64,000 bases of DNA from an uncultured virus (IMG/VR IMGVR_UViG_3300042450_001700) (IMGVR_UViG_3300042450_001700); one strand, 5' to 3'; shown: positions 21,285 to 46,746, counted from the first letter of the stretch. Notes: generated by a model from the sequence alone, not told the origin. Program-made: numbers and translations.

Positions 21285-21334
21285 AAATAGTAGTTATTGA
21301 CTTGATTAGTGTAGAACCATCAACTACATTCATA
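21285..21334 (+). promoter_or_regulatory. Class I promoter with operator
   Basis: TTGATT(21302)-N17-TACATT(21325); operator GTAGAACCATCAACTAC at 21311-21327. Confidence 0.75.
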
Positions 21335-22015
21335 GGGGTAGGAGCAACCAACAGCAAGGAGCAACATCACTGAAGCAACCAAAACAAACAGAGAACGACC
21401 GCCACCCGAGCCAGACCCAAGGCTCCATCAAGACAGTTCGCTTGAGTCTTGAAAGGGTGAGGCGGCAGTAGCGCACCACTACAAATCACGGTGACGGTTC
21501 CAGCCGAGGAACAGAAAGTAACGGCAAAGCCTGAGAAACAACAGGCAACTCAGCTAGTCAAGCTGAAAGCGAAGCGTGCGCAATCCTTGGCACTTGAGGT
21601 GAAGAATCAAACGGCCACCGAGTAACCCATACAACCACAGCTCTTGGAATAGAGCCACGGAACTCATCGTACTCCTCTCCCTTGCAACATATCTAAGGGT
21701 TGCGCACACTTCGCTTCCAGTCCGACTAGCTACACAGAAACCGCAGAGACATCAGGGCAACCCTTGCAGGGTTGTAAACCTGTGACAGGTCACGGACCCG
21801 GCAAGAGTCCACTCAAGGCATTGAGGACCACACAGGCGACTGCGCCTGATGTACTGACTGCGGCGAGGTAGTTGGATAACGACCTGTGACAGGGTGCTAG
21901 TAGAGATTCACTCATTGGCTTGCCGCCAGACTGAGGCCCGAGCTAGATCACACCCCGAGCTTTTCCTGTCCTATACCGGCAGAACAGCCCCGCCTAGCGC
22001 GGGGCTTTCTGCTTT
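21335..22015 (+). ncRNA. Large structured ncRNA candidate A (~680 nt)
   Basis: No ORF >=60 aa in any frame; bounded by promoter and terminator; long helix 21552-21590/21694-21731; 5'/3' end pairing. Confidence 0.7.
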
Positions 22016-22017
22016 TT
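21979..22017 (+). terminator. Intrinsic terminator (possibly bidirectional)
   Basis: AGCCCCGC-CTAGC-GCGGGGCT hairpin followed by TTCTGCTTTTT. Confidence 0.8.
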
Positions 22018-22444
22018 AGTCAGCCATCGGCTCAGGAATAACCACAGCCGGAAGCAACGCAGCCGACTCCGGGTCACCAACCCGCCGAGCGCCTTCCGCC
22101 TTCAACGCCGCCACAGCGCCCACAGCCCCAGCCCCAAGCGCCGCCTTCCAGAAGTCACCCGACTGAACGTCCAACACGGGTGCCATCACCATGAACGCAA
22201 GGAACGCAGACGCACCTGACCGGGCGACACGCAACGTAAGGTCAGTGTAGAACGGCATACCCACCGGGATCACAGCGGAGTTGACTGAGTTGAGCGCAAG
22301 AGTGATAACCGCTGACACCCCAGCCAACGCTGCGCACTGAACAGCGGTCCAACCGAAAGCCATACCGCCGAACAACGCCACGACAAAAGCTTGAATAAAC
22401 TGAGCTAAAACCTTTTCAACGATTGGTGCAAGTAGCTGTTTCAT
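22016..22444 (-). CDS. Holin-like membrane protein
   Basis: Multiple TM segments, ...FIQAF and VGDPESAALLP ending, near the endolysin. Confidence 0.7.
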   Translation of the reverse strand: MKQLLAPIVEKVLAQFIQAFVVALFGGMAFGWTAVQCAALAGVSAVITLALNSVNSAVIPVGMPFYTDLTLRVARSGASAFLAFMVMAPVLDVQSGDFWKAALGAGAVGAVAALKAEGARRVGDPESAALLPAVVIPEPMAD

Positions 22445-22815
22445 TCTTCTCCTTCATCAGTTTTCCGGGTGCGTGCGGTCCGCTTGTAATCTACAAGCGA
22501 ATCCGGCATCGGCACGTTTACCTGTTTGAGATGTTCGACCAGTGCGACAAACCTGCGTTCCAACTCGTTACACCGAGCAGCCTCAGCAGCCGACTTCGCT
22601 TCAAGCCGGTCATACCGAGATTCGCTCTTACCAAGATCAACTTCTAACGCCGCCAGACGCTTGCCGAGCATCTCCGCTGCGGGGACTGTTGCGTTCAACA
22701 ACCTTTCCGCATAGTCAGCCTGCGAAGGTCTACGACCCGCAATATAAGTGAGGACAGTTGTTAGCGCGCCAAGACCAATCGCCACTAGCGTTGTCACTCC
22801 AAACTGTTCAGCCAC
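22441..22815 (-). CDS. Membrane-anchored coiled-coil protein (lysis region)
   Basis: N-terminal TM helix followed by a coiled coil. Confidence 0.65.
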   Translation of the reverse strand: MAEQFGVTTLVAIGLGALTTVLTYIAGRRPSQADYAERLLNATVPAAEMLGKRLAALEVDLGKSESRYDRLEAKSAAEAARCNELERRFVALVEHLKQVNVPMPDSLVDYKRTARTRKTDEGEE

Positions 22816-23144
22816 GCGTCGCCCCGTTCTATCTGTTCCATCAGTTCAGCCTGCTTTTTCATCAGCAGAGTTTCAAGCGAAGCGGACAACGCCACACAAC
22901 AAATCCCGAACGCTATACAAACAGCAAACGCCACAGAGATTGAAAGTTCGTAGCTCTCAGCAACAAACCCGTGTGCGAATAATACGGCACCGATAGCAAT
23001 TCCCCATGATGCTAAAGCAATCATTGTGAAACCGAACCGGGCGAGACGAGTCAAGTAAGCGTGAAGCACAACACTGCACACCAAAAGACCTACACCGCCC
23101 CATACAACAAAAATCAGACCCGCCGCTAACCACAAACCGTTCAT
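22794..23144 (-). CDS. Multi-pass membrane protein
   Basis: Three hydrophobic segments. Confidence 0.65.
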   Translation of the reverse strand: MNGLWLAAGLIFVVWGGVGLLVCSVVLHAYLTRLARFGFTMIALASWGIAIGAVLFAHGFVAESYELSISVAFAVCIAFGICCVALSASLETLLMKKQAELMEQIERGDAWLNSLE

Positions 23145-24067
23145 GCTTCTTCAGCCTCCAACAAGTCTGTCATCAGCAACGTGAACTTCCCGACGTTCGA
23201 CCCTGCCCAACTGCTACCTGTCTGAACTTGAATATGAGGTTGCAACGGTTTCGTAGGATCATTGTTTGTAAAGCCTGAACGGTCGATGATCCTCAACCCG
23301 TACAACGCAGCAGCCTCAGCAAGCGAACGGCACTCACCGCCAAGAGCAACCATCTGCTGATATGAACCAGACCCACGATCCAACACCAACTTCCCCCCGG
23401 CTCGTGGGCCAGTGGTAAGCGTCCCGTCGCAACCAACGTAATCCGGTAGGACAATCGCTAAGTCATGCGGGTCATCATGCGACCACGGGGTCCACAAGTG
23501 CATGTGATGGGCGTAACCGGTAGCGGTGCATGGTTTACCCTGAACGCACACACCGTCCAACCAGCGGCCCCACATGAGCGCCTGATTAGGTATAGGCGGT
23601 AACGCAGGGGCAGCAACCGGGTCGAACTGGATTAGCTCGTGAACCGTTCCATCCGGCGAGGTAATAACCTCGTGTCTGTCCCAGCTTGGGGTCGGCCAGC
23701 CTCGTGTGTAGTACTCGCCTGAGGCAGGCAACGGAATCACCGTCCGGGTTTGTTCCCACTTTCCGTACCCGCCGCCGTAAGTAAGAACCCTGTTCTGGTT
23801 CAACCCTTGTTGCATGAATGTTCCGGTTGAAATACCTGACGGGCCGACAACATCCGGGGAGAACGGGCGTGTTGTCAAACCGATGTACCAGTTAGGCCAT
23901 TGAACCGGCCCTGATGGGATAGCAACCGTTCTAGCTTTGGTTACTTCAACCCGACTACAAACAGGAAGCGTAAAGTACTTCCATTGGGTCGCCCTGTGTG
24001 CGAGGCGTGACCAAGTGTTGACGTTCTGCCCCCAAACCAGCCGCTCTAACGCGTTAGGTGTCGCCAT
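23141..24067 (-). CDS. Hypothetical protein (308 aa, leaderless)
   Basis: TACAAT-N6-ATG; long ORF rich in W/P/G. Confidence 0.7.
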   Translation of the reverse strand: MATPNALERLVWGQNVNTWSRLAHRATQWKYFTLPVCSRVEVTKARTVAIPSGPVQWPNWYIGLTTRPFSPDVVGPSGISTGTFMQQGLNQNRVLTYGGGYGKWEQTRTVIPLPASGEYYTRGWPTPSWDRHEVITSPDGTVHELIQFDPVAAPALPPIPNQALMWGRWLDGVCVQGKPCTATGYAHHMHLWTPWSHDDPHDLAIVLPDYVGCDGTLTTGPRAGGKLVLDRGSGSYQQMVALGGECRSLAEAAALYGLRIIDRSGFTNNDPTKPLQPHIQVQTGSSWAGSNVGKFTLLMTDLLEAEEA

Positions 24068-24107
24068 CCGCTAATTGTAAACCAGACTCTCAGGAATGTC
24101 GGGAGGG

Positions 24108-24380: not shown

Positions 24381-24415
24381 AGCGTCACCATATCCTCTGA
24401 GGTAGACAGAAAGCT

Positions 24416-25889: not shown

Positions 25890-26729
25890 ATGAGCAAACT
25901 TGTAGGGCTATCCCCATCCAGTGTTCAGCTATGGGAACAATGCCCACGCAAGTTCAAGGAAGAAAAGATGATGGGCCGATCAGGTGGCACAGGTGAAGCC
26001 GCGCTACTCGGCACGTTCGTCCATCTCGCACTCGAACATCTCATGCAACTACCAACCGAAGAACGAGTCATCGAAACAGCCCGCATGATCGCGCGTTCCT
26101 CGTGGGAAGAATTTGCTGCATCACGAGAATGGATCGGATGGGTTTCCGAAACAGGGTTTGATGATGAGCAAGCGTTTCGTCGTCGGGGCTGGGCAAGCAT
26201 CTGCGGCTATTTCCAAATGGAGAATCCGCAACAGGTTGAGGTTGTTGCAACCGAGCGTTTCATTTCGGCAACTCTTGAAGGTGTTCCTGTCAGGGGGATT
26301 GTTGACAGGCTTGATCGTGATGTGTTCGGCAATGTTGTGATCGTTGATTACAAGACAGGCAAGGTTCCATCCCCGTGGTTCCGCGCACCGAAGATGCAAC
26401 AACTCAACATCTATGCGGCGCTCGTTGAAGAGGTTGACGGGGTGCGACCTGATGAGGGCCGGTTGTTGTTCACTTCGTTCTCGGAGACTATTGCTACGGA
26501 TGTGACTGCGGAGTCTGTGTGGTCTGCGGTTGAGGTGTTGAAGAATGCGTGGGCGGCGATTGACCGGGCGGCGAACGATGATGTGTTCCCTGCGAAGGTT
26601 GGACCGTTGTGTGGTTGGTGTCCGTTTGTTGGTGAGTGTGTTGATGGGTTGGCTGAGGTGAAGTCTCGGCGGTCTGCGGGGAAGTTGAAGAAGACTGCTC
26701 CGGCTTGGGAGTTAGCGGCGGGCGAGTGA
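25890..26729 (+). CDS. PD-(D/E)XK RecB/Cas4-like exonuclease
   Basis: LSPSS...CP, GTFVH, RGIVDRLD, IVDYKTG, QLNIY and CGWCPF...C motifs; leaderless TAGACT-N6-ATG. Confidence 0.9.
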   Translation: MSKLVGLSPSSVQLWEQCPRKFKEEKMMGRSGGTGEAALLGTFVHLALEHLMQLPTEERVIETARMIARSSWEEFAASREWIGWVSETGFDDEQAFRRRGWASICGYFQMENPQQVEVVATERFISATLEGVPVRGIVDRLDRDVFGNVVIVDYKTGKVPSPWFRAPKMQQLNIYAALVEEVDGVRPDEGRLLFTSFSETIATDVTAESVWSAVEVLKNAWAAIDRAANDDVFPAKVGPLCGWCPFVGECVDGLAEVKSRRSAGKLKKTAPAWELAAGE

Positions 26730-26734
26730 CCCTG

Positions 26735-26800
26735 AAAAGGAATATCAAACAATCCGCTTTATTGAATTGACATGTGTAGTCGATGGGACTATCTTGATGG
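26735..26800 (+). promoter_or_regulatory. Class I promoter with operator
   Basis: TTGACA(26767)-N17-TATCTT(26790). Confidence 0.8.
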
Positions 26801-27197
26801 GGGTAAGGCAATACATCCGAAACGAACCGGCGCAACCGGGGGTCAAGGCGGGGGGACAACCGTAGCAAAAGGGTTCCAACAAGCACCAAGGTCAACGGCC
26901 CGCTAGTGGACATCAGACACTCAGCAGGGATACGGCAACGCATCCCCAACGCAAGCCAGCACGCATTAGCGGGAACACGAGTCTTGATGGCAGAAGCAAC
27001 GCACGAGCAATCTTGCATCGTTGAGAAACGAACAGACAAGAGGTTCAATCGTGACGTAAGAGCTACCGAAAGTAGTTCTGAATGTGAGGCGTGCCTGAGT
27101 TCGTGGATTGCGCATCTAGTAGCAAAAGCGCAGTAAGGGGTTTGGTGAATCAAACTTGTTGGAACCGGATTACGGTCCCCCCGCCCTTTTCGGTTTT
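26801..27197 (+). ncRNA. Structured ncRNA candidate B (~395 nt)
   Basis: Perfect long-range stems 26847-26857/27175-27185 and 26872-26883/27155-27166; many GNRA-type hairpins; U-rich 3' end. Confidence 0.75.
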
Positions 27198-27648: not shown

Positions 27649-27807
27649 TGGGTGATGGTAGTTGGTGTCGGGTGTTGGGGGATAGCGTTGTCGGGTTTTG
27701 GGGGTCGAAAAGAAATCTGAAGAAATATCCTATTTGGACTTGCGGGCTGTAGTCGTATCGACTATCTTGATGGGGGTAAGGCAATTCACAACAAAGGAGC
27801 AAGGCAC

Positions 27808-28038
27808 ATGGGAATCGAAATCGAAGTACGGAACGGAATGGTCATCGAAGTTGATGAAGACTTCAACACAGAGTCCAATGACATAACCGTATGGGTGCTG
27901 GAAGTCGAAGTATTCGACCCTCAAGCGTCACCATGCTTTTCAAGCATCACCGAATACGGTGTCTTTGAGACATCCGCTGAGGCTGAGGCTGACGCACCTG
28001 AAGATGCGAAGCTTTACGAGGCGGAGGTGACAGCGTAA
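27808..28038 (+). CDS. Acidic hypothetical protein
   Basis: Class I promoter at 27740-27768, AAGGAG SD; paralog at 48690. Confidence 0.7.
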   Translation: MGIEIEVRNGMVIEVDEDFNTESNDITVWVLEVEVFDPQASPCFSSITEYGVFETSAEAEADAPEDAKLYEAEVTA

Positions 28039-29461: not shown

Positions 29462-29632
29462 CCCCAAACCCAAACCCCCCCGAACAAACCCCACCCCCAA
29501 AACACAGGTCAGGAGTTTCAACCCACCACCTGTAGAAACATCGACTACAACAACATTTCGGATATACACAAACCGAACCACCCGGACTCAAAAAGAACCC
29601 ACAAAAAAAGATTGGGAGTTTCAAGTTGTCAA

Positions 29633-29822
29633 CTTTTCCAAAAAGTTATCCACAGGTTTTTCCACAGAGTTATCCACAGAACACCTGTTCGACGAACATT
29701 TGTTCGGAAAAGTTGTCCACAGGTTGTCCACAGGTTGTCCACAGCTTTATCCACAGAAAAGTTTTCCACAGGTTTTCCACAGGCAAAAGTTATCCACAGT
29801 TTGTCCACAGGTTTATCCCCAA
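29633..29822 (+). repeat. DnaA-box array with LexA-like boxes (left)
   Basis: TTATCCACA x4, TTGTCCACA x4 and TTTTCCACA x3, co-oriented at ~11-12 bp spacing; GAAC-N4-GTTC at 29679 and 29694. Confidence 0.85.
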
Positions 29823-29825
29823 CCT

Positions 29826-30602
29826 TGTTCGCTGTTCTCGGCTCGTGGTCGGCGCTCGTGGTCGGCTCTCGCTCTCTTGTTCTCGGCTCGTTCTCGGCTC
29901 TCGCTCTCGCTCTCATGTGGCTCTCATGTTGTGGCAATAGGTGAGACAGTAGGCGCGCGCTATCGGCTCTCTCTGTTCGCTCTCGTTCGTGTGGTCGGCG
30001 CGCTCTCGGCTCTCTCGTTCGTGCCGCTCGTGTTCGCTCTCGGCTCGTGGTCGGCTCTCTCTGTTCGTGGTTCGTTCGTGCCGCTCTCGCTCGTTCTCTT
30101 GGCTCGTGTTCGTGTGCGGCTCGTGGTCGGCTCTCTCTGTTCGTGGTTCGTTCGTGCCGCTCTCGCTCGTTCTCTTGGCTCGTGTTCGTGTGCCGCTCGT
30201 GGTCGGCTCTCGTGTTCGTGTGGCTCGTTCGCTCGTGTGGCTCGTGTGCCGCTCGTGTGGCTCTCTCTCGGCTCTCGTGTGCCGCTCTCGTGGCCCAGCA
30301 GCGCGTGCCGCTCTCGGCTCGTGGTTCGTGTGGCTCTCGTTCGTGTTCGTTCGCTCTCGTGGCTCTCGTGGCGCTCTCGTTCGTGGTCGGCGCTCATGGC
30401 TCTCTCGTGTGTTCTCTGTTCGCTCTCGGCTCTCGCTCTCGTGTGGCGCTCTCTCGCTCGTTCTCGTGGCTCGTGGTCGGCTCTCGTTGGCTCTCGCTCG
30501 TGGTGCCGCTCTCGTTCTCTCTCGTGGCTCGTGGCTCTCGCTCATGGCACTCACCCAGCAGCTCGTGCCGCTCGTGCCGCTCGTGCCGCTCGTTCTCGTT
30601 CT
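29826..30602. repeat. Adenine-free low-complexity tract 1
   Basis: Mosaic of GCTCTC/GCTCGTG/GTTC/GCC/GGTCG units. Confidence 0.9.
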
Positions 30603-30605
30603 CCC

Positions 30606-30646
30606 CAAAAACTAGAACGAGAGCCGACCGTTTTGGTCGGCTCTCG
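30606..30646 (-). terminator. Cassette terminator
   Basis: GAGAGCCGACC-AAAAC-GGTCGGCTCTC hairpin then GTTCTAGTTTTT; repeated at ~31641-31682, 32686-32728 and 33646-33684. Confidence 0.75.
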
Positions 30647-30657
30647 TTCTCGGCTCG

Positions 30658-30984
30658 TCAGTCCTTGAATATTGCTTTTAGCTCGGCAGTGATTGCCCGC
30701 TGAAGCGCTGGAATTTCGCGCACAAGAGCGTTGTACGTTTTCGGCTCAACCGCCAAAGTGTGAGTGCCAACACCTTGAGCGTTGAGAGTGCGAACCCACT
30801 TAGGCGTTCCGGCGTATCCTTCGTCAGTTGTGATGACTTTCGTGCCGTTCTCGTTGTAACCAACGAACACCCGGCGAGGATTTCCATGTACGTTGTTTGT
30901 TGTTGTGTAGTAGCCGATCGAACGGATGTTGAGCAGTAGCTCGTGTGCGGTCATTTGGTTGGCGAGTACTTCGTGGATTGCCAT
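30658..30984 (-). CDS. Cassette gene 1, hypothetical (108 aa)
   Basis: Normal-complexity ORF between the conserved leader and terminator. Confidence 0.75.
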   Translation of the reverse strand: MAIHEVLANQMTAHELLLNIRSIGYYTTTNNVHGNPRRVFVGYNENGTKVITTDEGYAGTPKWVRTLNAQGVGTHTLAVEPKTYNALVREIPALQRAITAELKAIFKD

Positions 30985-31172
30985 GATTTTTCTCTCATTC
31001 CCGAGCGGCTCGTGCCGCTCGTGTTGTTGGTGTGACTACATTCAACCAAAGATTGGAACAGAACGCAATAGCAAAACACCAGATTCTTTTTCTGACAGCG
31101 ATTTAGCCGCTAGAACTAGGGGGTTTTGCCCCAAAAGAAATATTTTGGAATCGCTCCAAAACGGTCGTTTTG
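30985..31172 (-). promoter_or_regulatory. Conserved ~185-bp cassette upstream block (4 copies)
   Basis: Homologous to 31961-32146, 33022-33208 and 33999-34180; includes TTGCGT, GTAGTCACACCAACAACACGAG and a hairpin before GAGAG. Confidence 0.75.
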
Positions 31173-31635
31173 GCGCTCTCGGCTCATGTTGCTCTCGGCT
31201 CTCGTGGTGCCGCTCATGTTGCTCTCGTGCCGCTCTCGCTCTCGGCTCTCGCTTGCCGCTCATGGCGCTCTCGTGTGGTCGGCGCTCGTGGCTCTCGGCT
31301 CGTGGTCGGCGCTCTCACCCAGCAGCGCTCTCGCGCGCTCTCGTGGCTCGTGGTCGGCGCTCGGCTCATGGTCGGCTCGTGCCGCTCTCACCCAGCGCTC
31401 GTGTGGCGCTCGTGTGGTGCCGCTCTCGGCTCGTTCTCTCTCGTGGTCGGCTCTCGTGCCGCTCGTGCCGCTCGTGGCGCTCTCGTGGCTCGTGGTGCCG
31501 CTCTCTCGGCTCTCGGCTCGTGTGCTTGCTCTCGCTCTCTCTCGTGCCGCTCTCGGCTCGTGTGGTGCCGCTCGTGGCTCATGCCGCTCTCGGCTCTCGC
31601 CCAGTCTTGTGTGGCGCTCGTGGCGCTCTCTCGTT
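31173..31635. repeat. Adenine-free low-complexity tract 2
   Basis: Same unit vocabulary as tract 1. Confidence 0.9.
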
Positions 31636-31693
31636 GGATCCAAAAACTAGAACGAGAGCCGACCGTTTTGGTCGGCTCTCGCTCTCGCTCGTT

Positions 31694-31960
31694 CTAGCCT
31701 AGTTGATCCTCTCGTTTTGGCAGTAGTTGGAGTTCTTCCCGATCTCCGGCGAGAGCGTCACAACATTCGCACAAGTTGCGGCTGAATGATCCCGAGAACC
31801 AATCCGAAGCCGGAACCAGATCAAAATCCTTGCTTAGTTCTTCGATCCCTTTTTGGCATGCAATCGAATCGGCTTCGCTCATTCCCGAGTCATCGCCATC
31901 AGCGATCATTTGGAGGCAGTTGAGGCAAACTCGGATGGTGATGATGTCTGACAGCTTCAT
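31694..31960 (-). CDS. Cassette gene 2, acidic Zn-binding-like (88 aa)
   Basis: VCLNC...FS...CECC...GDR motif. Confidence 0.75.
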   Translation of the reverse strand: MKLSDIITIRVCLNCLQMIADGDDSGMSEADSIACQKGIEELSKDFDLVPASDWFSGSFSRNLCECCDALAGDREELQLLPKREDQLG

Positions 31961-32146
31961 TTTTTTCTCTCATTCCCGAGCGGCTCGTGCCGCTCGTGTT
32001 GTTGGTGTGACTACATCAAAGCAAACATTTTGACTATACGCAATAGCAAAATGCGAGATTCTTTTTCTGACCGGGGTTTTGCCGCTAGTTCTAGGGGTTT
32101 TCACGCCAAAAGAAATATTTTGGAATACGTCCAAAACGGACGTTTT

Positions 32147-32685
32147 GCCGCTCTCGGCTCTCTTGTGCCGCTCGTGTTCTCGTGGTTCTCGCTCTCTCGT
32201 TCTCTCGGCTCGTGTGGCGCTCGTGTGGTCGGCTCATGGCGCTCTCGCTCGTGGTTCGTCCTAGTGCCGCTCTCGTGGCTCGTGGCGCTCGTGTGTGGCT
32301 CTCTCGTGGTTCTCGTGGCGCTCTCGTGTGGCGCTCGTTCTCATGCCGCTCTCGTGGCTCTCGTGTGGCTCGTGGTTCGTGCCGCTCGTGGTTCTCGGCT
32401 CTCACCCAGCAGCGCGCTCGTGTGGCTCGTGTGGTGCCGCTCGTGTTCGTTCGTGGTTCGTGGTCGGCGCTCGTGTTCTCTGTTCGCTCTCGTGGCTCGT
32501 GTGGCGCTCTCGTGGCGCTCATGGTGCCGCTCTCGTTCGTGGTCGGCTCATGTGGCTCTCTCGTGGCTCGTGGTTGCTCGTTCGTGGTTGCTCTCGGCTC
32601 ATGGCGCTCTCGTGTTCGTTCGTGCCGCTCTCGGCTCTCTCGTGGCTCTCACCCAGCGCTCGTGGTGCCGCTCTCGGCTCGTGCC
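32147..32685. repeat. Adenine-free low-complexity tract 3
   Basis: Same unit vocabulary. Confidence 0.9.
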
Positions 32686-32736
32686 AAAAACGGCAACAAG
32701 CGCCGACCGTTTTGGTCGGCGCTCGTTGCTCGTTTT

Positions 32737-33021
32737 CTAGAACGCTTGGAACAGAATCCCGTCGCAAAATTCGACTGCAAAAGTCATATCGTTGAGAGCG
32801 TCAAGCGAGTCGAAATTTTCGCCGTAGTTCTCGTTGATCTCTTCCAAGTCTGCCGCAAACATCCATTCTTGATCGAATGCGATTGGATCGAATTCAACCC
32901 CTTGGCCTTCTTCTTCTGCCGCTTCGATAAGCTCAAACAGTGCGTAGGATGCGTTGATCGGCCAGTTGCAAAGTGTGCGCATTGTTTGGGCAAACGTGCA
33001 GGCTGTCAGTAGTTCGTACAT
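32737..33021 (-). CDS. Cassette gene 3, very acidic protein (94 aa)
   Basis: SYALFELIE...EFDPIAFDQEW...LDALNDMT; D/E-rich. Confidence 0.75.
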   Translation of the reverse strand: MYELLTACTFAQTMRTLCNWPINASYALFELIEAAEEEGQGVEFDPIAFDQEWMFAADLEEINENYGENFDSLDALNDMTFAVEFCDGILFQAF

Positions 33022-33208
33022 TTTCTTTTCTCATTTCCCGAGCAGTTGGTGCCGCTCGTGTTGTTGGTGTGACTACATCAAAGCAAAGATTTGAAAGATA
33101 CGCAATAGCAAAACACGAGATTCTTTTTTCGACCGGGGTTTTCGCCCTAGAACTAGCGGGTTTTGCACCAAAAGAAATATTTTGGAATCGCTCCAAAACG
33201 GCAGTTTT

Positions 33209-33645
33209 CGCGCTCTCGCTCGTTCTCTCGTGTTGCTCGTTCTCGGCTCTCGGCTCATGGTTCTCTCGGCTCTCGTGTGGTGCCGCTCTCGCTCTCGGCT
33301 CTCGCTCTCGGCTCGTGTGCCGCTCTCGCCCAGCAGCGCGCTCGTGTGCCGCTCTCGTGTGGTTCGTGGTCGGCTCTCGGCTCTCGCTCATGGTTGCTCT
33401 CGTGTGCCGCTCGTGTTCGTGGCAGATACCCAGCGGCGCGTGCCGCTCTCGTGGCTCGTGTTTGCTCTCGGCTCATGCCGCTCTCGTGGTTGCTCTCTCG
33501 TGGCTCTCTCGGCTCGTGGTTGCTCTCTCGCTCGTGCCGCTCATGGTCGGCTCGTGGTGCCGCTCTCGGCTCTCGTGGTCGGCTCTCGTGCCGCTCTCGT
33601 TCTCGTGGCTCTCCCAGCCGCTCGTGGCGCTCGTGTGGCGCTCGC
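33209..33645. repeat. Adenine-free low-complexity tract 4
   Basis: Same unit vocabulary. Confidence 0.9.
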
Positions 33646-33698
33646 AAAAACGAGAATGAGCGCCGACCTTTTTGGTCGGCGCTCGTGGCTCGTGTGGT

Positions 33699-33998
33699 TC
33701 AGTCGTATTCAACCTCACCCCATTGATTTGTTCGTGAATGACAGAACTCTTCAACATAGTAAGAGTTGAGATCAACGTATTTTGGTGCCGCTTCAGCCGC
33801 TTCAGCCGCTTCAGCGATTTCCATGACTAGCGCCCTAGTCGAAACTGACGGAACCGATTTGCCGCCAGCGTTTTTGGCGATTTCAGTCCACTCAGAATCG
33901 GTCAAGTACTCGGGGTTTTTGCCGATAGTGGCGATTTCTGTCGCCATCTTCTTAGCAAGCTTTGCCCGATTTGCTAGGTGTGCCGGATGTGCTTTCAT
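33699..33998 (-). CDS. Cassette gene 4, HPxHL-family copy 3
   Basis: MKAHPAHLANR...W..IA..AG...PS..T. Confidence 0.75.
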   Translation of the reverse strand: MKAHPAHLANRAKLAKKMATEIATIGKNPEYLTDSEWTEIAKNAGGKSVPSVSTRALVMEIAEAAEAAEAAPKYVDLNSYYVEEFCHSRTNQWGEVEYD

Positions 33999-34180
33999 TC
34001 TGCTCTCTCTTCCCGAGCCGCTCGGCTCGTGTTGTTGGTGTGACTACATCAAAGCAAAGATTCCACACATAAGCAATAGCAAAATGCGAGATTCTTTTTG
34101 GAACAGCGGTTTTACCCCTAGAACTAGGGGGTTTTGCACCAAAAGAAATCTTTTGGAATCAGCCCAAAACGGTCGTTTTG

Positions 34181-34528
34181 GCTCTCGGCTCGCTCTCTCA
34201 TGGTCGGCTCTCGGCTCGTGTTCTCATGGCTCTCTCATGGCGCTCTCATGGTTCTCTCTCTCTTGTGCCGCTCTCGCTCTCTCATGCCGCTCTCGTGGTC
34301 GGCTCGTGGCTCGTGGCGCTCTCTCTTGCTCTCGGCTCTCGTGTGGCGCTCTCGTGGCTCGTGTGGTTGCTCTCTGTTCTCGTGGCGCTCTCTGTTCTCT
34401 CTCGGCTCGTGTTCTCTCTCTCATGGCGCGCTCGTTCTCGTGGTCGGCTCGTGGTCGGCTCGTGGTTGCTCTCGCTCTCTCGCTCTCGGCTCTCTCATGG
34501 TCGGCTCGTGTGGCGCTCTCGGCTCATG
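34181..34528. repeat. Adenine-free low-complexity tract 5
   Basis: Same unit vocabulary. Confidence 0.9.
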
Positions 34529-34614
34529 CAAAACATCTGCCGAACTCGTGACAGAAAACCGCCACTAGCGCGCGCGGTCGATTCCAAAACGACCAACACG
34601 AAAACGCCCGCGAG

Positions 34615-34846
34615 TTATCCCCAACCACACCAACCAGACGAGCCAAAAACAGCCAAAAGTTTTCCACAGGTTTTCCACAGGTTTTCCACAACTTTTTCCA
34701 CAGAACACCCGTTCCCCAAACGAATGTTCGATCAAAGTTATCCACAAGTTATCCACAGGTTTATCCACAGAACACCTGTTCGATCCGGTTATCCCCAGAG
34801 TTATCCACAGGTTTATCCACAGGTTTATCCACAGCCTGTGGATAAC
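34615..34846 (+). repeat. DnaA-box array with LexA-like boxes (right)
   Basis: TTATCCACA x6 plus one inverted copy (34837), TTTTCCACA x4; GAAC-N4-GTTC at 34703 and 34770. Confidence 0.85.
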
Positions 34847-35068
34847 CCAGCCCAGCCCAGCCCAGCCCCAAGCGGGCGGCGGCGGGCGGGCGGCAGCGGC
34901 GGCCCAGCCAGCGCGAGTTTTCCGGGCGGCGGGCGGCGGCGGCCAGCGCGAATTTCCGGGCGGGTGGGCGGCCCAGTCCGGCCCAGTCCGGCCCCGGATA
35001 AACGGCGGCCCAGCCAGCGCGAGTTTTCTAGGGGGCGGCGGGGCGGCGGGCCAGCGCGAATTTTCTAA
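34847..35068. repeat. GC-rich repeat block
   Basis: CCCAG tandem repeats, GGGC/GGC runs and four CCAGCGCGA(G/A)TTT units. Confidence 0.8.
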
Positions 35069-35074
35069 TTCGGA

Positions 35075-35461
35075 TTACCTATAAGGCGAAAGCGTCCCCG
35101 CAGCAGGAAACCCCCGTGATAACCACCCGCAAACCAAAAGCTCAATCGACGGGCGCACAACCAGAGCCGAAACCCCGGCAGCAGCCAGATCGTCTAGCCA
35201 TTCACGTTGTTCGACGGAAAGACGACCGACTTCCCGTTTGAGTTCAAGACATGCGAAACCGAAACGCGGGTGGACGAGCGCGAGGTCGGGGAACCCTTTA
35301 GCGTCTGCGTCACCGACGAAAACGCCTGCTGAGACTTGTCGTCGTGAATCGTGGAAGTGTGCGACACGCCATCCGTATAAACGGGCGAAAGTCATTATCC
35401 GGTTTTGTAGGTCTTTCTCGGTGATCTCTCGGAATGCTTTCTCTTCATTCGTAAGTCGCAT
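35075..35461 (-). CDS. VRR-NUC domain nuclease
   Basis: TEKDLQ, GFPDL, ELK...GRLS.EQ..WL motifs. Confidence 0.85.
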   Translation of the reverse strand: MRLTNEEKAFREITEKDLQNRIMTFARLYGWRVAHFHDSRRQVSAGVFVGDADAKGFPDLALVHPRFGFACLELKREVGRLSVEQREWLDDLAAAGVSALVVRPSIELLVCGWLSRGFPAAGTLSPYR

Positions 35462-36635: not shown

Positions 36636-36637
36636 GC

Positions 36638-36902
36638 GGCTTGGTCCAGTCCCGTCACGGCTGGGCGAAGCCGGTATCGGGTTTCAGTAAATGCGAAAGG
36701 ACCGGAAGTCTGTGCTTCAGTGCTTCGCTCCTGCGGAGCTTCTCTGTCGCTCACTTCTCCGGTCCTTTGTAGCTTGAGCTTCTCTATCCTCGTTCCTACG
36801 GAACTTCAGTGCTTCGCTCAGTTGCTTTGTAGCTAGTGGCTAGGCCGTCCGTTCCCGGTTTCATTCCCGGACTTGACCGCTTTGCGCAGGTACTCGCTAC
36901 CC
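36638..36902 (-). ncRNA. Structured ncRNA candidate F (~265 nt)
   Basis: Class I promoter TTGCGC-N17-TACGGT at 36908-36936; closing stem GGTC-A-AGTCC/GGACT-G-GACC; duplicated internal motifs. Confidence 0.65.
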
Positions 36903-37033
36903 CCATTACCGTATCAGGGTTTACTACAGTGCGCAAGTCAATAACGAAACAATCTCAGATTTCTTTTTGACCACCATCGGGCCACCACCACCAGTTTCCT
37001 GTTTGCGTCCATAGAGAATGTTATTGTTGAAGT

Positions 37034-37420
37034 ATGGAATCAGAAACAGTACAACCAATGAAGCAACGCAAGTCAGGCCGTCCCCTCAAAACAGACGAAC
37101 CACTCAAGACCTACTCGTTCAGTCTGAGCGAAAACCAGATCGCACTTCTTGACGGTTGGGCTAAAGCGAAGGGCGAGTCGCGATCCGCAGTGTTGCGTTC
37201 ACTCGTTATGCGTTTGGAAGCAGCGCCGGTGGTTGAGCCTAAGCCGCTTCAACTGAACCCGGTTGAAGTGCAGCCTGTAGCAGATGCGCCTCGCCCGCCG
37301 AGCGACATCGCTGTTGAAGCAGCAGTAGCGGCTGTTGAGTACGATGCGGCAGTTGAGCCTCCGGTTGAACTGACTGTTGCTCAACGCATCGCAGCAGCTC
37401 TTGCATCTCTTGATGCGTAG
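37034..37420 (+). CDS. Ribbon-helix-helix (CopG-like) DNA-binding protein
   Basis: GRP...YSFSLS....LLD.WA...GESRSAVLR pattern; leaderless. Confidence 0.75.
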   Translation: MESETVQPMKQRKSGRPLKTDEPLKTYSFSLSENQIALLDGWAKAKGESRSAVLRSLVMRLEAAPVVEPKPLQLNPVEVQPVADAPRPPSDIAVEAAVAAVEYDAAVEPPVELTVAQRIAAALASLDA

Positions 37421-37611
37421 TGGAACCTGAACCTCCTGTAGAGGTTGACCCTCCGGTTGATAACCCGATGCTTGACGTTTATAAAGCGGCTACCGAGTTG
37501 TTGCGGCGGAACCGTCCTGTGAAACAGAACCGTGAGCAGCGGCGTGCAGCGTTACGGGCGAAGAAGTCTAAAGGTCGTTGACCGCTGGGTCTGAGTTGTG
37601 GGGTCACCGTA

Positions 37612-37688
37612 AAATGGAAGAAGCCCGGTGCGTAAGGGGGAGCTTCTTGATGCTCAACCCCCGACAACCGGGCTTGCGTTCCTATGTG
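37612..37688 (-). ncRNA. Small hairpin RNA candidate G (~77 nt)
   Basis: Class I promoter TTGATA-N17-TACAGT; AAGCCCGGT/ACCGGGCTT closing stem followed by a U-rich tail. Confidence 0.5.
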
Positions 37689-37752
37689 TCTTTGACTGTA
37701 GTTGATGGTTCTACAGTTATCAAGTCTATTTGCAAATAGTTTTCGGATTTCT

Positions 37753-38529
37753 TTACAACCCCAAAACCGTGTACTCAACCACACACTGACAATTCACTGA
37801 CTCAGCAGCAGGCAAAGCAATATCCCCCGGATACTCAGCAAAGAACCCACCAACAACAAACAACTCACCCGGACCCACCACCTGCCCATTAGCAGCAGCA
37901 TGAGACTCCCTACTATCCACCAACTGGCAAATCCAAACCTTCGACCCCTCAACACCAACAGCGATCAACTCATCAGGAATATCAACATCGTCCAACTCCG
38001 CCAACAAATCAAAAGCAGAACCAGCCGCAGCGTTCAACCCGCTGTTCGTTTCAGTAACAGTCATAACCCGTGCCACCCCCTGAGACAACGGTCCAGACAC
38101 ACCACCATCAAACAACCCCAGCCGGTCTAACAGCCAACCCGGAGCCTGACCAGATGCCTCCGTTGAAGCAACCGCAACCCGCCCATCAACAGTTGCGCCA
38201 ACCTTGTAAATCACAACCATCCGTGCAGCCAACATCTCCTCAGCCGCACTCTCCACAACATTAGAACGCAACAACCACACCAACCCCAAAGCAATCGCAG
38301 CATCACGAGCAATCTCCCGATACATCCGATCCAAAACAGGCTTCACTTCAGAATCAACAGCCTCAACCCACCAGCCCTGATCCCACAAGTCCTCATACAT
38401 CCCATCAGACTTCGTGACTCTCGCCCTCAACTTCGCTCTCACATCATCAAACGCAAAGCCAATAGCACGCCCAACCCTATAATTCCACAACGCACGGTCA
38501 GCATCAGATAACAGATACGACCCGGCCAT
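37753..38529 (-). CDS. MuF-like minor head protein
   Basis: TETN, KVW...SRESH...NGQ...F.VGG...YPGD...ESVNCQC motifs. Confidence 0.8.
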   Translation of the reverse strand: MAGSYLLSDADRALWNYRVGRAIGFAFDDVRAKLRARVTKSDGMYEDLWDQGWWVEAVDSEVKPVLDRMYREIARDAAIALGLVWLLRSNVVESAAEEMLAARMVVIYKVGATVDGRVAVASTEASGQAPGWLLDRLGLFDGGVSGPLSQGVARVMTVTETNSGLNAAAGSAFDLLAELDDVDIPDELIAVGVEGSKVWICQLVDSRESHAAANGQVVGPGELFVVGGFFAEYPGDIALPAAESVNCQCVVEYTVLGL

Positions 38530-42103: not shown

Positions 42104-42466
42104 TCAGATTTCTTTCTCCACATAAACCACTCTGCCGTCAATGATGACGATGCCTTCTGGCAATATCGCATGATCCAGTATCGCCCCACGCAGATCAGCT
42201 CCGAATAGGCTTGCTCCGAATAGGTGTGCGTTCGTGAGGTTCGCTCTGCGTAGGTCGGCTCTGCGTAGGTCGGCGTTATGCAGGTTTGCGCAGATGAGGT
42301 CGGCTCCGATGAGGTTCGATCCGAATAGGTCGGCGTTTGTCAGGTTCGCTCCGAACAGAACGGCTCCCATTAGGTTTGTGTCGGATAGGTCTGCCCCGTA
42401 GAGGTTCACTCCGGTTAGGTCGGCTCGTTCCATGTTGCGGACTTCGTGTCCGATGATTGTGGTCAT
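42104..42466 (-). CDS. Pentapeptide repeat protein
   Basis: A(D/N)Lxx repeats throughout. Confidence 0.9.
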   Translation of the reverse strand: MTTIIGHEVRNMERADLTGVNLYGADLSDTNLMGAVLFGANLTNADLFGSNLIGADLICANLHNADLRRADLRRANLTNAHLFGASLFGADLRGAILDHAILPEGIVIIDGRVVYVEKEI

Positions 42467-42555
42467 CCTTCGACCCATATTCTCCAGCAGAGCATTCCTA
42501 CGCTTGCGATGTTTCCTACGATTGCGATTGCTATGTGAATCTCGGTCTGTGTCAT
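42463..42555 (-). CDS. Small single-TM peptide (30 aa, leaderless)
   Basis: TTGATT-N16-TATACT-N6-ATG; MTQTEIHIAIAIVGNIASVGMLCWRIWVEG. Confidence 0.6.
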   Translation of the reverse strand: MTQTEIHIAIAIVGNIASVGMLCWRIWVEG

Positions 42556-42656
42556 ACCCCTAGTATAGTCATATGAACTACAGAATCAAGTCAATATCAA
42601 ACAAATATCAAGATTTCTTTCAGCACCAAACACCACACAACGGCTACCCTAAACAT

Positions 42657-44228
42657 GTGGAACCACTCGTAGTAATCCCATCGGAACTACTTGCACTCGC
42701 AACAGACCACGAACGCGAGCAATACCGCCTATACCTAATCGACGCAGCAGTCACCACCGACGACTGGGAAACATGGCTACTCGGAATGGCCCCCGGCTAC
42801 GCATCAGCCCCATTCGGTGACCACCACAAACAATTCTGGAACTGGGCATGGGAAGTAGAAACAGGTGAACGACCCCGACCGTTCGTCGCTATCTGGCCCC
42901 GAGGCGGCGCAAAGAGTACCAGCGCCGAGATGTGCGTCGTCGCTCTCGGCGCACGACAGAAACGCCACTACTGCCTATACGTCAGCGAAACACAAGATCA
43001 GGCAGACGACCACGTTGCCAACATCGCATCACTACTCGAAGACACCGAAATCGGATTCGCATACCCCGAACTAGGCGAACGAATGATGGGTAAGTTCGGA
43101 TCAGCAAAAGGTTGGCGGCGCAACCGAATCCGAACCGGAACCGGGTTCACCGTTGACGCTGTAGGACTTGACTCAGCATCACGAGGCATCAAACTCGAAA
43201 ACCTGCGACCCGACCTAATGGTCTTCGATGACATCGACAGCGAATCCGACGGGCCATCAGCCACAGACAAAAAGATCCGAACCATCACCCGCAAACTTCT
43301 CCCAGCGGGATCAAACGCTTGCGCTGTTATCGCCATCCAGAACAAGGTCCACGACAACTCCATCTTCGCACGACTCGCAGACGGACGAGCAGACTTTCTC
43401 CGTGACCGAATTGTGTCCGGGCCAATCCCATCAGTATGGAACCTTGAATGGGTAGAACAAGAAGGCTTGTTCAACATCGTCACAGGGCAAGCGGCATGGG
43501 AAGGCCAGCCACTCGAATCGTCACAAGCGCTCCTCAACGACATCGGACTAACAGCGTTCCTCGCAGAGTGCCAACACGCGACAGTCACGATGACCGGCGG
43601 GATGTTCGACCACATCAACTGGCCGAACCTTCATGTCACCGAAGCAGAACTACCAGTTATGAAACGCGTAGTCGTCTGGTTGGACCCTGCTGTCACCTCA
43701 AACGACCAATCAGACTGCCAAGGCATCCAATGCGATGGGCTGGGTTCCGACGGTTTGATCTACCGTCTTTGGTCATGGGAGGGGCGCACCACACCACTTG
43801 ACGCTGTGATGCGTGGAATCAGAATCGCTCTTCAATGGAACGCCGACACGCTCGGAGTTGAATCCGACCAAGGCGGCGATACATGGCAAACGGTTTACCA
43901 TCAGGCTTGCGAGAACTTGCGTGACGCAGGGGAACTTGAAGGATCAGCACCACGGTTCGCTTCAGCGAAAGCAGGCGCAGGGCATGGATCGAAGATGGCT
44001 CGTGCGCAACGGATGCTTGTCGATTACGAACGGAACCAGATCAGGCATCTCCTTGGCACACACCAAGTGTTAGAACTTGGACTCATGCGTTTCCCTAAGA
44101 TCAAACCATACGATCTTGTTGACGCAGCGTACTGGGCGTGGGCGGACATCTCGAAGAAGACGAACAGGTCGAAGTCTCGTATCGGGTCTGCGGCTAACTC
44201 AACTATCGGTGCGTTCAACTTCAACTAA
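42657..44228 (+). CDS. terL: Terminase large subunit
   Basis: WPRGGAKST Walker A, RPDLMVFDDID Walker B, WLDPA and DLVDA nuclease motifs; probable leaderless GTG 42657. Confidence 0.9.
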   Translation: MEPLVVIPSELLALATDHEREQYRLYLIDAAVTTDDWETWLLGMAPGYASAPFGDHHKQFWNWAWEVETGERPRPFVAIWPRGGAKSTSAEMCVVALGARQKRHYCLYVSETQDQADDHVANIASLLEDTEIGFAYPELGERMMGKFGSAKGWRRNRIRTGTGFTVDAVGLDSASRGIKLENLRPDLMVFDDIDSESDGPSATDKKIRTITRKLLPAGSNACAVIAIQNKVHDNSIFARLADGRADFLRDRIVSGPIPSVWNLEWVEQEGLFNIVTGQAAWEGQPLESSQALLNDIGLTAFLAECQHATVTMTGGMFDHINWPNLHVTEAELPVMKRVVVWLDPAVTSNDQSDCQGIQCDGLGSDGLIYRLWSWEGRTTPLDAVMRGIRIALQWNADTLGVESDQGGDTWQTVYHQACENLRDAGELEGSAPRFASAKAGAGHGSKMARAQRMLVDYERNQIRHLLGTHQVLELGLMRFPKIKPYDLVDAAYWAWADISKKTNRSKSRIGSAANSTIGAFNFN

Positions 44229-44263
44229 AAATGCAAGAAGCCCCTCCGTTGTGGAGGGGCTGA
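44227..44263 (-). terminator. Intrinsic terminator between terL and ncRNA C
   Basis: AGCCCCTCC-N5-GGAGGGGCT hairpin followed by TCTTGCATTTT on the minus strand. Confidence 0.75.
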
Positions 44264-45007
44264 AGCCATCTTGCTGACTAACCGAGAAGGCAATACGTCC
44301 TTCTGTCGGCATCGGTTGATACCGCCAAATTTTTGCACCATTGGGGGTGCCTGCAACCGCCCTTGCAGGTGGGTTCCTATCTTCTGTCACCCGAGGTCTA
44401 CAACCCTTGGAACACCGGAAGATTCGTTCAGCGGCGGGACTTTGTTTCAGGCGATATTCCCTGTGCTGCTTTTTGCCTGTACTGCTTGTTGATCGCAGAA
44501 CCGTTGAGTTAGCAGGAAGAGCGGCGGGAGAGATGCACCAACAACGCGCCCATCTTCGCTTCACATCAGAAGCTCGTTACCTAGCCGGGAGGGGAGAGAT
44601 GCACCAACAACGCTCCACCGGGTAGGGAATGGCTAACTGGCGGGAAGTATATCTTCCCGCTAACTCAACGGTCCTACGAATCAAGTTCTTAGAAGATGCT
44701 CTTGGACCGGCTACTTGCTTTCGTTCTTACTACTCCACGGATTGTGCGCACGCACCGCTTCACCTCAGAACTAGTTGCTTTCACCGTTCTCCGCATTCAC
44801 TCGCGCTATGTCAACATCCATCCACCACCTTCATAAGCACATCTCTGTGTGCCGTAGGGCGCTTCACTTGGCGATCAGCCCGGTACTTCTGCGGTTCCAA
44901 GTTCATCATCTAAGAACTTGATTCCTGTACTTGAGAGTCTTTGGTGTGCGGACCCTAGCCGCCATGCTCCCCGGTCGTTCCGGTTCTTTAGGTTGTATTG
45001 CCTTACC
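44229..45007 (-). ncRNA. Large structured ncRNA candidate C (~780 nt)
   Basis: Promoter TTGACA-N17-TATCTT at 45014-45042; 5'/3' stem 44995-45004/44287-44296; perfect 16-bp stem 44678-44693/44909-44924; stem 44498-44520/44652-44674. Confidence 0.75.
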
Positions 45008-45077
45008 CCCATAAAGATAGTCGATGCGACTACACATGTCAAGTCAATAATCAAGATTGTTTGATATTTCTTTTCGG

Positions 45078-45981
45078 CACCAACCCCAGCCTTCACGACT
45101 GGCACTGAATGACTGGTCAAGCTCCATTGGATGCCACACGCCCATTTCACCGTCAAGCTCAACGGTCCGGTAGGTCAACTTCCGGTGTGGACTCACCCTT
45201 CTGCTCTCCGCCAGTCGGCGGTGTTGCTCAAACTGCACCTGCTTTCTCTAGTTGGAATGATCTAAACGAATGTGTGGGGAATCCGGTTTTCCGGGCTACA
45301 GTCCAGCGGCGGTCTCTCCCTTGCGCACGACACGCGGGCTAGGTGCTTGTCTGCGGAATACCGGCCTAACCGGACTCCCCTTGAATCTTGAGTTGACGCT
45401 TGGATCGTTTGGGAGTGACCCGACGAACTCCGCATATCTCATCAAGATTCAGTACTTGACCGTTTCGCAATGAACAGCATTTCTGCTGTCGCCTAATGGC
45501 CGTCCGGTCAAGATCGCTTGGCATTGAATGCCTTATAGGTTACTCACGCTCCGGGTAATTAGTCCGTTTGATTAGCGTAGGGCGGTATGGATCGGTGTCA
45601 GCTAAAGACTTCAGTGTTTATCACCCTTCCAGTTTCGATCCGCAGCGTTCGAGGAGAACTCGTAAACCCCGGAACCATCTTGGTTTCCGCACTGTCGTAG
45701 CTGCTGTTCAGGTACCTAACTCAGGTTCCTACTGCCAGTCGCCGCTGCCGACAGTTTCCGACTTGCGGACATCTGCTGAACTTTGACTGGTGCTGCTAAT
45801 TGCGTGAGCGACCTATAAGACGCTCATTGCTTTCTTGAGAGCTAAGAGTCTGTTGAAGGTTTGTCACGTTGTTACCGGTTTGGAATGTCCCGTTCTTTGC
45901 GTGGGGGCCTTGCTGATCTCTTAGCCGCTCAAGCTTGTCTCTGTTTTCAAGTTGCTGTTGTGAGGCTGTTGCTCCCCCACA
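45078..45981 (-). ncRNA. Large structured ncRNA candidate D (~900 nt)
   Basis: Promoter TTGCGG-N17-TACTGT at 45988-46016; 5' TGTGTGGGG pairs with 45271-45279; many internal stems; no credible ORF. Confidence 0.65.
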
Positions 45982-46047
45982 CACAAGACAGTAGTCGATA
46001 CGACTACAGTCCGCAAGTCGAAACAGAAGATTGTTTGATATTTCTTT

Positions 46048-46599
46048 TGGTTGGTCAGTGAAACCGATGTTCTGAATAAGAGCTGCAAGTTTCTATCCCT
46101 GTGACGCAACATCGGGCTGCCTTGCTCCCCGACCGAATACGCTTCGGTGATTACGCTCTTGACGACGCTTTCACTTGACTCTGTGTGCCTGTCTGTCTCC
46201 AGACGATTCCACTGACCAACCACTCAAGTTGCTGCGGAGGTGCCGTACTAGGGATGTGTTGGGAGAGCAAGGCTTACGTCTTTCGACTACTTGGTCACCT
46301 CAATCGTCTTGGGTCCGATACCGCAAGTTTCAACTTGAGTCATTCTAGTTACTGTTGAGGAAGCCGTACTGAGGATGTCTTAGGAGAGGAAGGCTTACAC
46401 CCGAGGGCTACTTCTTGCACTTCAATCGTCTTCTGGTATCAAACAGAATCTAACTAGCACTCGCTGTTTCTGTTGCTGAGTGTGCAACCGTCACATTTCC
46501 TTGAGGTGGTGTGTCACCCGGAATCCGCTACACGCTTTGTGCGTCTTGCTGCGATTCGCCCCCGGTTGTGTCTCCGGTTCGTACTGCTCACTTCCTTAT
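46048..46599 (-). ncRNA. Large structured ncRNA candidate E (~550 nt)
   Basis: Class II promoter at 46607-46629; duplicated ~77-nt domain; stem GGTTGGTCAGTG/CACTGACCAACC at the 3' end. Confidence 0.7.
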
Positions 46600-46746
46600 G
46601 TAGATAAAGATACTACAGGTGTCTGACATTATGCGAATCCAAATGGTGTGACTCTTGTCACACGCCAAATCGGAGCCGCCAGCACACCCAGCCGACACGC
46701 GACAAAGGGACCGGAGCTACCCGGTCCCCTCATCACCAACAACAAC

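Follow-up and report, generated by a model that had tools for sequence, protein, structure and literature searches.

The 64,000-nt stretch analysed here (the window) stems from an uncultured virus, IMG/VR entry IMGVR_UViG_3300042450_001700, and represents a tailed-phage genome of ~54% G+C. It harbours seven units, named A to G (Table 1), which are poor in open reading frames (ORFs) and lie behind copies of a repeated promoter. With a probability of roughly 0.78, we consider A to E, and probably F, to be genes for stable, structured noncoding RNAs, organised as self-contained cassettes, whose products would act in trans as folded RNAs, most likely as scaffolds or decoys. Together the seven units, five large and two small RNA genes by prediction, cover 3603 nt with F in a corrected, shorter form, which agrees with the ~3.6 kb assigned to them in a preliminary description of the sequence. 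Related loci are referred to by handles (G002, L005, etc.); G002 is a 67-kb relative used for whole-block comparison.

Folding energies and paired substitutions argue for RNA structure. Five of the six units first counted as large (A, B, C, D, and F) show a better fold than any coding control: z-scores of the minimum free energy are -6.17 for A, -4.63 for B, -4.26 for C, -4.00 for F (computed on a 265-nt stretch), -3.22 for D and -1.56 for E, while twelve 400-nt coding windows reveal a mean of -0.17 and a minimum of -2.41. In the D core (45520-45833; 314 nt, six sequences) we obtained 96 consensus pairs, ten of them with double changes, and 97.0% of cells are paired. Its 18 double-change cells compare with 6.5 in shuffles, none of 500 shuffles reaching the observed value, and slid controls yield 0-3 double-change pairs. 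Folded in sense orientation, the core reaches -100.1 kcal/mol with a covariation term of -3.18, as opposed to -91.2 kcal/mol and +1.82 in antisense orientation, which shows the base-pair covariation to be strand-specific. In the 3' domain of C (four sequences), four of 67 pairs are double-changed, with a covariation score reached by 0 of 500 shuffles. The middle domain of C (five sequences, without shuffle control) is closed by a long-range helix of 24 bp and contains seven double-changed pairs among 71; the 5' domain of A (four sequences) contains three among 32.

Unit E is nearly invariant across relatives, and its structural evidence sits in two tandem domains with 22 pairs, four of them double-changed, whose outer and inner closing helices co-vary between the copies. 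In L009/L010, the hairpin GUC-GAAA-GAC of copy 2 is replaced by GCC-UUCG-GGC, i.e., a tetraloop swap accompanied by a matching stem change. The E domain also has ~50 invariant, apparently unpaired nucleotides, long stretches of which look like a binding or tertiary core. Compensatory changes in the D core, both C domains, the A 5' domain and the E tandem domains support a folded RNA in each of these putative transcripts. The covariation evidence for B (four sequences) is anecdotal: a single one of 101 consensus pairs is compensatory, and an optional 38-nt hairpin carries its own paired change. Of the at least six large structured RNAs announced in the preliminary description, A to E hold as large units, with compensatory changes in domains of A, C, D, and E and a covariation that is not significant in B, and F shrinks to ~213 nt and is devoid of comparative support.

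The units are well conserved within a narrow group of phages. Variable sites account for 5% (E) to 17% (D) of covered unit positions vs 14-49% in coding controls. In the comparison with G002, identity is 94% for the E/D stretch, 81% for the flanking DUF932 gene and 77% for the gene of the large terminase; C likewise reaches 94% in its matched part, coding blocks 77-88%. Homologs of D, C, and A at 77-89% identity still keep their helices. Judged from these alignments, the units are shown to be under purifying selection. A search of IMG/VR with the large terminase protein yielded 17 loci, and A to E recur in IMG/VR loci with a terminase protein 77-85% identical, at 77-99% nucleotide identity of the units. 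Among 53 metagenome loci found with the same protein (33-84% identity), only L026, which is the same contig as L009, has units or promoter, and phages of this set with a terminase of ≤55% identity have neither. A search pattern for the E domain matched eight stretches in IMG/VR and a pattern for B three, all in known relatives. Among 185,579 bacterial/archaeal genomes, the E-domain pattern matched one stretch in a Crocinitomicaceae metagenome-assembled genome, which we regard as a chance match because R1, our covariance model of the E domain, fails to confirm it.

Alignment of eight upstream regions, those of the seven units and one at 27708-27775, reveals a single promoter family with an A-rich upstream block, a TTGAC-type -35, a 17-nt spacer and a TAnnnT -10. 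All seven predicted starts lie 5-8 nt past the -10 hexamer, close to the 6-7 nt given at first, and the units are located behind shared promoters. The profile built from the eight regions detects 15 sites in the window with E≤10, and 13 of these have E below 0.01; eight are the training sites, which match by construction. Class I comprises the promoters of A, B, C, D, F, and G and the copy at 27708-27775, and its spacer carries a 7-bp palindrome, GTAGTCG-N3-CGACTAC. The first transcribed bases GGGG(G)TARGG are common to A, B, C, and the 27708 copy, and B and C have a 14-nt leader in common. A 5' hairpin motif, GAACCGG-N-ACCGGGG, occurs in B, C, and E (three matches vs 0.01 expected). The E promoter represents a second class, which elsewhere stands before an ATG. 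The copy at 27708-27775 is followed by a Shine-Dalgarno (SD) sequence and an ATG at 27808, with relatives alike, and the ORFs downstream of it show codon periodicity (p 9e-7); since this copy precedes protein genes, the promoter family is not RNA-specific.

A 16-bp palindrome, TGTGACAAGAGTCACA, occurs in two perfect copies in the window (21266-21281 and 46647-46662). They precede the predicted starts of A and E by ~55-62 bp and are oriented alike with respect to the unit, and the palindrome is kept upstream of A and E in relatives. With their form TGTGA-N6-TCACA, they are candidate sites for CRP/FNR-family regulators, whose consensus they fit.

Two further promoter classes have an ATG ~7 nt past the -10 (14431-14504(-), 17524-17588(-), 48245-48310(+), 5135-5196(+), and 12204-12266(-)), which suggests leaderless mRNAs. 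The ATG at 48313 opens an ORF of 97 aa. The one at 14426 opens just 15 codons, and the conserved ATGACATCGAC may therefore be a leader and not a start.

Apart from the 14-nt leader of B and C, no similarity or complementarity was found between units, in line with their earlier description as structurally distinct. Across relatives, they vary in a modular fashion. A carries an insertion of ~170 nt in G002/G003 and lacks one block in G003; in L011, an E-type domain takes the position of the helix-closed domain of A (21565-21718), and C of the same locus has an insertion of ~210 nt that includes a further E-type domain. In L009/L010, a replacement affects the 3' domain of E, and L015 has a D body behind a B/C/E-type leader. 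Model R1 finds its training copies, among them L011 214-330 within an A-like unit, and one non-training copy (L011 5425-5539, E 8e-5); in the window, it detects no further copies in A or C, including the 21565-21718 domain. F is absent together with its promoter from L100/L106, and in G002/G003 units are relocated or inverted with breakpoints at promoters. The preliminary description had proposed one co-regulated multi-RNA system. This proposal is not upheld: the units share no complementarity, they are present, absent or moved independently of one another in relatives, and their promoters are general ones that also drive protein genes. The units need not act together.

Two observations concern the promoters. 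Contigs of two independent lake DNA runs end at the repeated promoters (37693 and 44997-45074) and continue into the 5' ends of other units, either because the assembly branches at repeats or because cassettes have truly recombined. In addition, L015 4046-4105(-) and L099 (G003 ~49775-49832, +) hold an additional promoter, after which comes a 5' end resembling that of D (..GCACGCAACTTGAAAACAG); therefore, the clade may hold more RNA cassettes than the window shows.

Rearrangements of this kind bear on an alternative which we deem unlikely, namely that the units matter mainly as DNA: mobile promoter/terminator cassettes (PeSL-like, see below) serving recombination and transcription insulation, with an interior of filler that looks conserved owing to recent exchange. 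In its favour, the repeated promoters form the rearrangement breakpoints between the window, G002, and G003, F represents an insertion absent from L100/L106, DNA-run contigs end or branch at promoters, and units resemble each other across relatives more than flanking genes do, which recent transfer would also produce. Filler, however, would neither keep its pairing via double changes in D, C, A, and E domains, nor favour one strand, nor fold far better than shuffles, and it would not explain helices that are kept where D, C, and A homologs differ.

A terminator or U-tract, claimed for A, B, C, and G, is present in all four. For F, the predicted start behind the promoter holds and the end at 36638 does not: the unit has its own terminator hairpin and U-tract and therefore ends near 36690, with ~213 nt instead of 265. 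D and E are without terminator, and both run into the next promoter. G, rightly described as small, is a 77-nt promoter-to-terminator hairpin RNA; its transcript is identical in L005, where the G promoter differs. The end of C at 44229 is a single base away from the terminase stop codon (44228), and A and the convergent gene 22016-22444 have their terminator in common.

Such positions could also indicate cis-acting or antisense regulators of neighbours, i.e., of the terminase gene (C), of lysis genes (A) or of a + strand regulator operon (G), in place of RNAs acting independently in trans, a reading to which we attach a small probability. C is located directly after and convergent to the large terminase gene in the window, L005, G002, G003, and L011, A shares its terminator with a convergent gene, and G faces the 3' end of the 37034-37581 operon on the other strand; for G, this explanation is as good as any. 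On the other hand, C stops at 44229 and A at 22015, without overlap of a neighbouring ORF unless terminators leak, D and E have no convergent partner, and a conserved multi-domain structure of 400-900 nt far exceeds antisense needs.

With respect to coding capacity, the units are ORF-poor as first described, containing only short ORFs. A, C, D, and E have at least three stop codons in each of six frames; since stops of more than one kind occur in all frames of these four, a changed code opens none, and stop-codon reassignment is ruled out as the cause. In B, a single antisense frame is open; it belongs to ORF 26494-27153 and is broken by a 38-nt indel in G002 and G003, and a 44-aa ORF in A is interrupted by the ~170-nt insertion in the same relatives. 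A PHROG scan of five unit-overlapping ORFs gave 0 family matches. To assess codon periodicity, substitutions vs relatives were pooled by window position modulo 3. Among 12 coding controls, the portal gene is uninformative, being without homolog coverage, and the 11 comparable ones are all periodic (p 9e-7 to 4e-56). No codon periodicity was found in A (p 0.63, 68 variable sites), B (p 0.96, 26 variable sites of 397), C (p 0.41, 88), D (p 0.88, 155) or E (p 0.33, 28 of 552). Codon-type conservation, named at the outset as evidence that would speak against RNA genes, is thus seen in none of A to E (p 0.33-0.96); these units are noncoding. It is highly improbable that the units serve as mRNAs of very small proteins or represent decayed protein genes: short ORFs of up to 121 aa lie in or across units, an SD-like AAGGAG is conserved near the A 5' end, the same promoters drive real genes and a micro-ORF under ~25 aa could still reside within a unit, but A to E all lack periodicity, the longest ORFs are broken by the 38-nt and ~170-nt indels, whose lengths are not divisible by 3, the five ORFs scanned belong to no PHROG family, and stops of several kinds occupy all frames under any code.

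The sense strands of the units are A-rich and U-poor (A 28%, U 18%, vs 22% and 24% in genes). An SD-like TGAGGTGA is found on the sense strand of A, C, and E, with nine occurrences in the window vs 2.9 expected; the 7-mer is not enriched overall (14 vs 10), and the idea of a ribosome sponge was dropped as unsupported.

As proposed for verification in the preliminary description, the units were compared with known RNA families, which include GOLLD, ROOL, OLE, raiA, HEARO, RNase P, tmRNA, group I/II introns, and ribozymes. Covariance models of Rfam 15 gave 0 matches at gathering scores in the 64-kb window, so that no unit matches any of its families; at E≤1, the region 21000-47000 contains one irrelevant match to a microRNA model (30610-30657, E 0.54). 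ARAGORN reports no tRNA or tmRNA in the window.

Our favoured reading, structured noncoding RNAs encoded in self-contained cassettes, implies the following course. A copy of the repeated sigma-70-type promoter would fire the transcript of each cassette, beginning in B, C, and E with the 5' hairpin GAACCGG-N-ACCGGGG. The transcript would adopt a fold of one domain or several, with long-range helices closing them; A, B, C, F, and G would end at an intrinsic terminator, D and E where the next cassette begins. Such cassettes would correspond to morons or to mobile regulatory cassettes of PeSL type with an RNA payload in place of an ORF, which related phages place differently, lack in part, and remodel by swapping whole helix-closed domains between units. 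During infection, the RNAs may act in trans as scaffolds or decoys binding a host or phage factor.

Several points weigh against this reading. Promoters and transcript starts are predictions, and a generic sigma-70 scan lists only three of the seven unit promoters (B, C, and G). We infer transcription of the units: two public RNA runs contain 10-13% of sampled words, and since their short contigs are scattered over genes and units alike, they permit no conclusion on transcription, ends or strand. The comparative set comprises 4-6 sequences from few close lineages; because the units are restricted to close relatives, the covariation rests on a narrow clade, and the consensus structures derive from the same alignments in which pairs were counted. 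The fold of E as a whole does not surpass shuffles (z -1.56), B does not exceed shuffles in covariation (127 of 500), and G is free of variation. F is without an independent homolog and hence without comparative support; its sole variant differs at five positions, four of them unpaired and one changing A-U to G-U. High identity could result partly from recent exchange between co-occurring phages and not from constraint. Finally, the role as scaffold or decoy is what we infer for the folded products.

A bolder extension, which we find doubtful, holds that the clade runs a toolkit of several new large folded RNA classes, put together by moving helix-closed domains among promoter-bounded cassettes in analogy to domain shuffling in proteins, and that at least one domain, the tandem E type, forms a new ligand- or protein-binding core or ribozyme for host takeover or counter-defence.

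Table 1. Units, promoters and selected genes of the window.
Feature	Position	Strand	Evidence or remark
16-bp palindrome TGTGA-N6-TCACA	21266-21281	.	centre ~61 bp upstream of predicted A start
Promoter of A, class I; -35 TTGATT, 17 nt, -10 TACATT	21271-21334	+	profile E 6e-12 (training site)
Unit A, 681 nt; conserved blocks and swappable domains	21335-22015	+	intrinsic terminator 21986-22015 (terminator scan)
Helix-closed domain within A	21565-21718	+	alignments with relatives
Promoter of B; TTGACA, 17 nt, TATCTT	26735-26800	+	profile E 1e-13 (training site); 10/12 consensus matches
Unit B, 397 nt; closed by long-range helices, U-tract at end	26801-27197	+	fold and alignment
Class I promoter and 5' leader of protein genes	27708-27775	+	profile E 3e-16 (training site)
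Unit F, ~213 nt; terminator hairpin and U-tract	36690-36902	-	fold; shorter than 265 nt first stated
Promoter of F	36903-36967	-	profile E 3e-11 (training site)
Unit G, 77 nt; essentially one terminator hairpin	37612-37688	-	opposite 3' end of + strand operon
Promoter of G	37692-37753	-	profile E 2e-10 (training site); 9/12 consensus matches
Unit C, 779 nt; convergent with large terminase gene	44229-45007	-	terminator 44261-44229 (terminator scan)
Promoter of C; TTGACA, 17 nt, TATCTT	45008-45074	-	profile E 2e-16 (training site); 10/12 consensus matches
Unit D, 904 nt	45078-45981	-	without own terminator
Promoter of D; 7-bp spacer palindrome (listed as stem-loop)	45982-46048	-	profile E 4e-15 (training site)
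Unit E, 552 nt; 96-98% identical across relatives	46048-46599	-	without terminator
E domain copy 2, 117 nt	46223-46339	-	alignment, consensus fold; model R1 116 bits (training sequence)
E domain copy 1, 113 nt, helix-closed	46345-46457	-	alignment, consensus fold; model R1 134 bits (training sequence)
Promoter of E, second class; overlaps palindrome 46647-46662	46600-46661	-	profile E 4e-8 (training site)
Major head protein	2344-4335	-	PHROG match
Portal	10063-12057	-	PHROG match
Large terminase	42573-44225	+	PHROG match

Further PHROG matches in the window are a small terminase, a DnaB-like helicase, a replication initiator, an exonuclease, and an endolysin, to which Pfam adds glycosyltransferases, a pentapeptide-repeat protein, and DUF932. 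No named phage is a close relative at the DNA level, and Megablast revealed one irrelevant 49-nt match; the large terminase protein shares 20-27% identity with named phages among the matches listed. Public runs containing the stretch are labelled as lake water metagenomes. An Rpf-type transglycosylase domain (Pfam) encoded in the window and actinophage terminases among the best named matches to the large terminase protein are weak hints at an actinobacterial host.

Three gene arrangements were observed in passing. In the 540-aa ORF at 53254-54873 (+), a DNA methylase segment is joined to a pyridoxal-phosphate-dependent enzyme (PALP) domain, which is unusual for a fusion. Three glycosyltransferase-like genes at 131-2255 (-) directly adjoin the major head protein gene, and a 124-aa pentapeptide-repeat protein is encoded at 42104-42478 (-) between replication genes and the large terminase gene. 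Furthermore, a 5.5-kb block at 29600-35100, nearly free of A on the + strand, carries on its - strand four ORFs, which are small and unrelated (8-23% identity). Ahead of every ORF stands a conserved element of 199 nt, and behind it come a hairpin and ~650 nt of T-free sequence made of ACGAG/AGAGC words. The 5.5-kb block is flanked by two arrays of DnaA-box-like TTATCCACA 9-mers, 12 at 29646-29821 and 13 at 34615-34845 (35 in the window vs 10 expected), and is absent from G002/G003. The block could be an origin, an iteron or a DnaA-titrating region.

Large structured RNAs of unassigned function are rare, and every new class has so far brought new insight into RNA biology and structure. One small phage clade here offers at least five such candidates absent from Rfam 15, with ends defined by predicted promoters and terminators and with natural domain-swap variants that mark domain borders. 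They lend themselves directly to in vitro transcription, chemical probing, and cryo-EM, even before a host is available.

Among known systems, type III toxin-antitoxin loci combine an antitoxin RNA of tandem repeats, each of few tens of nt, with a neighbouring endoribonuclease toxin gene. E was rejected as a candidate of this type: its repeats measure 113 and 117 nt, it is flanked by a DUF932 protein gene and unit D, and neither PHROG nor Pfam gave a toxin family. The lambda OOP RNA, a small antisense RNA of 77 nt, derives from a promoter firing into a terminator hairpin and faces a regulator operon at its 3' end. G may be a candidate of this kind, as its anatomy fits in length, in promoter and hairpin, and in its location opposite the 3' end of the 37034-37581 operon. 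The morons of lambdoid phages, a concept reportedly due to Hendrix and co-workers, classically encode proteins and have their own promoter and terminator. The present cassettes resemble them as independent units with promoter and terminator between genes (A, B, C, F, and G), present or absent among relatives; unlike classical morons, they would carry an RNA payload instead of a protein, and D and E have a promoter but no terminator.

A survey of IMG/VR by Fremin et al. 2023 predicted 10,006 candidate structured RNAs (PMC10690425), and our study resembles it in applying comparative structured-RNA prediction to uncultured viral contigs, from a collection including this phage's relatives. A search of six of its supplementary files for the relatives' contig numbers gave no match; three others were not searched, so overlap is possible.

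The closest kinds to our units are large orphan phage-linked RNAs of GOLLD/ROOL type and PeSL cassettes. GOLLD and ROOL are large orphan structured RNAs linked to phages or prophages, for which a homo-oligomeric, RNA-only assembly is described in PMC12286853. With these, as characterised there, our units have in common a length of hundreds of nt, several domains, long-range closing helices, carriage by phages, a partial derivation from lakes, and an unassigned function. They differ in that they match nothing in Rfam 15, in that several unrelated RNAs of 0.4-0.9 kb occur per genome in place of one type, and in that each unit has its own copy of the repeated promoter, domains are swapped between units and no tRNA genes lie nearby. 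PeSL cassettes of T4-type phages are scattered motifs of a promoter and a stem-loop/terminator at borders of insertions, deletions, and replacements between close relatives (PMC2839356 and PMC4122927). T4-type marker genes are not found among the PHROG matches of the window, and judged by the markers seen the phage is unrelated to that type. The likeness lies in a repeated promoter with stem-loop (15 profile matches in the window, eight of them training sites) and in copies at rearrangement borders, such as the relocations in G002/G003, the missing F in L100/L106, and the leader exchange in L015. Unlike in the PeSL elements of T4-type phages, the payload would be a structured RNA without codon periodicity and not an ORFan gene, and a palindrome resides within the promoter spacer. 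The idea of morons and mobile regulatory cassettes would thereby be extended from protein to RNA payloads.

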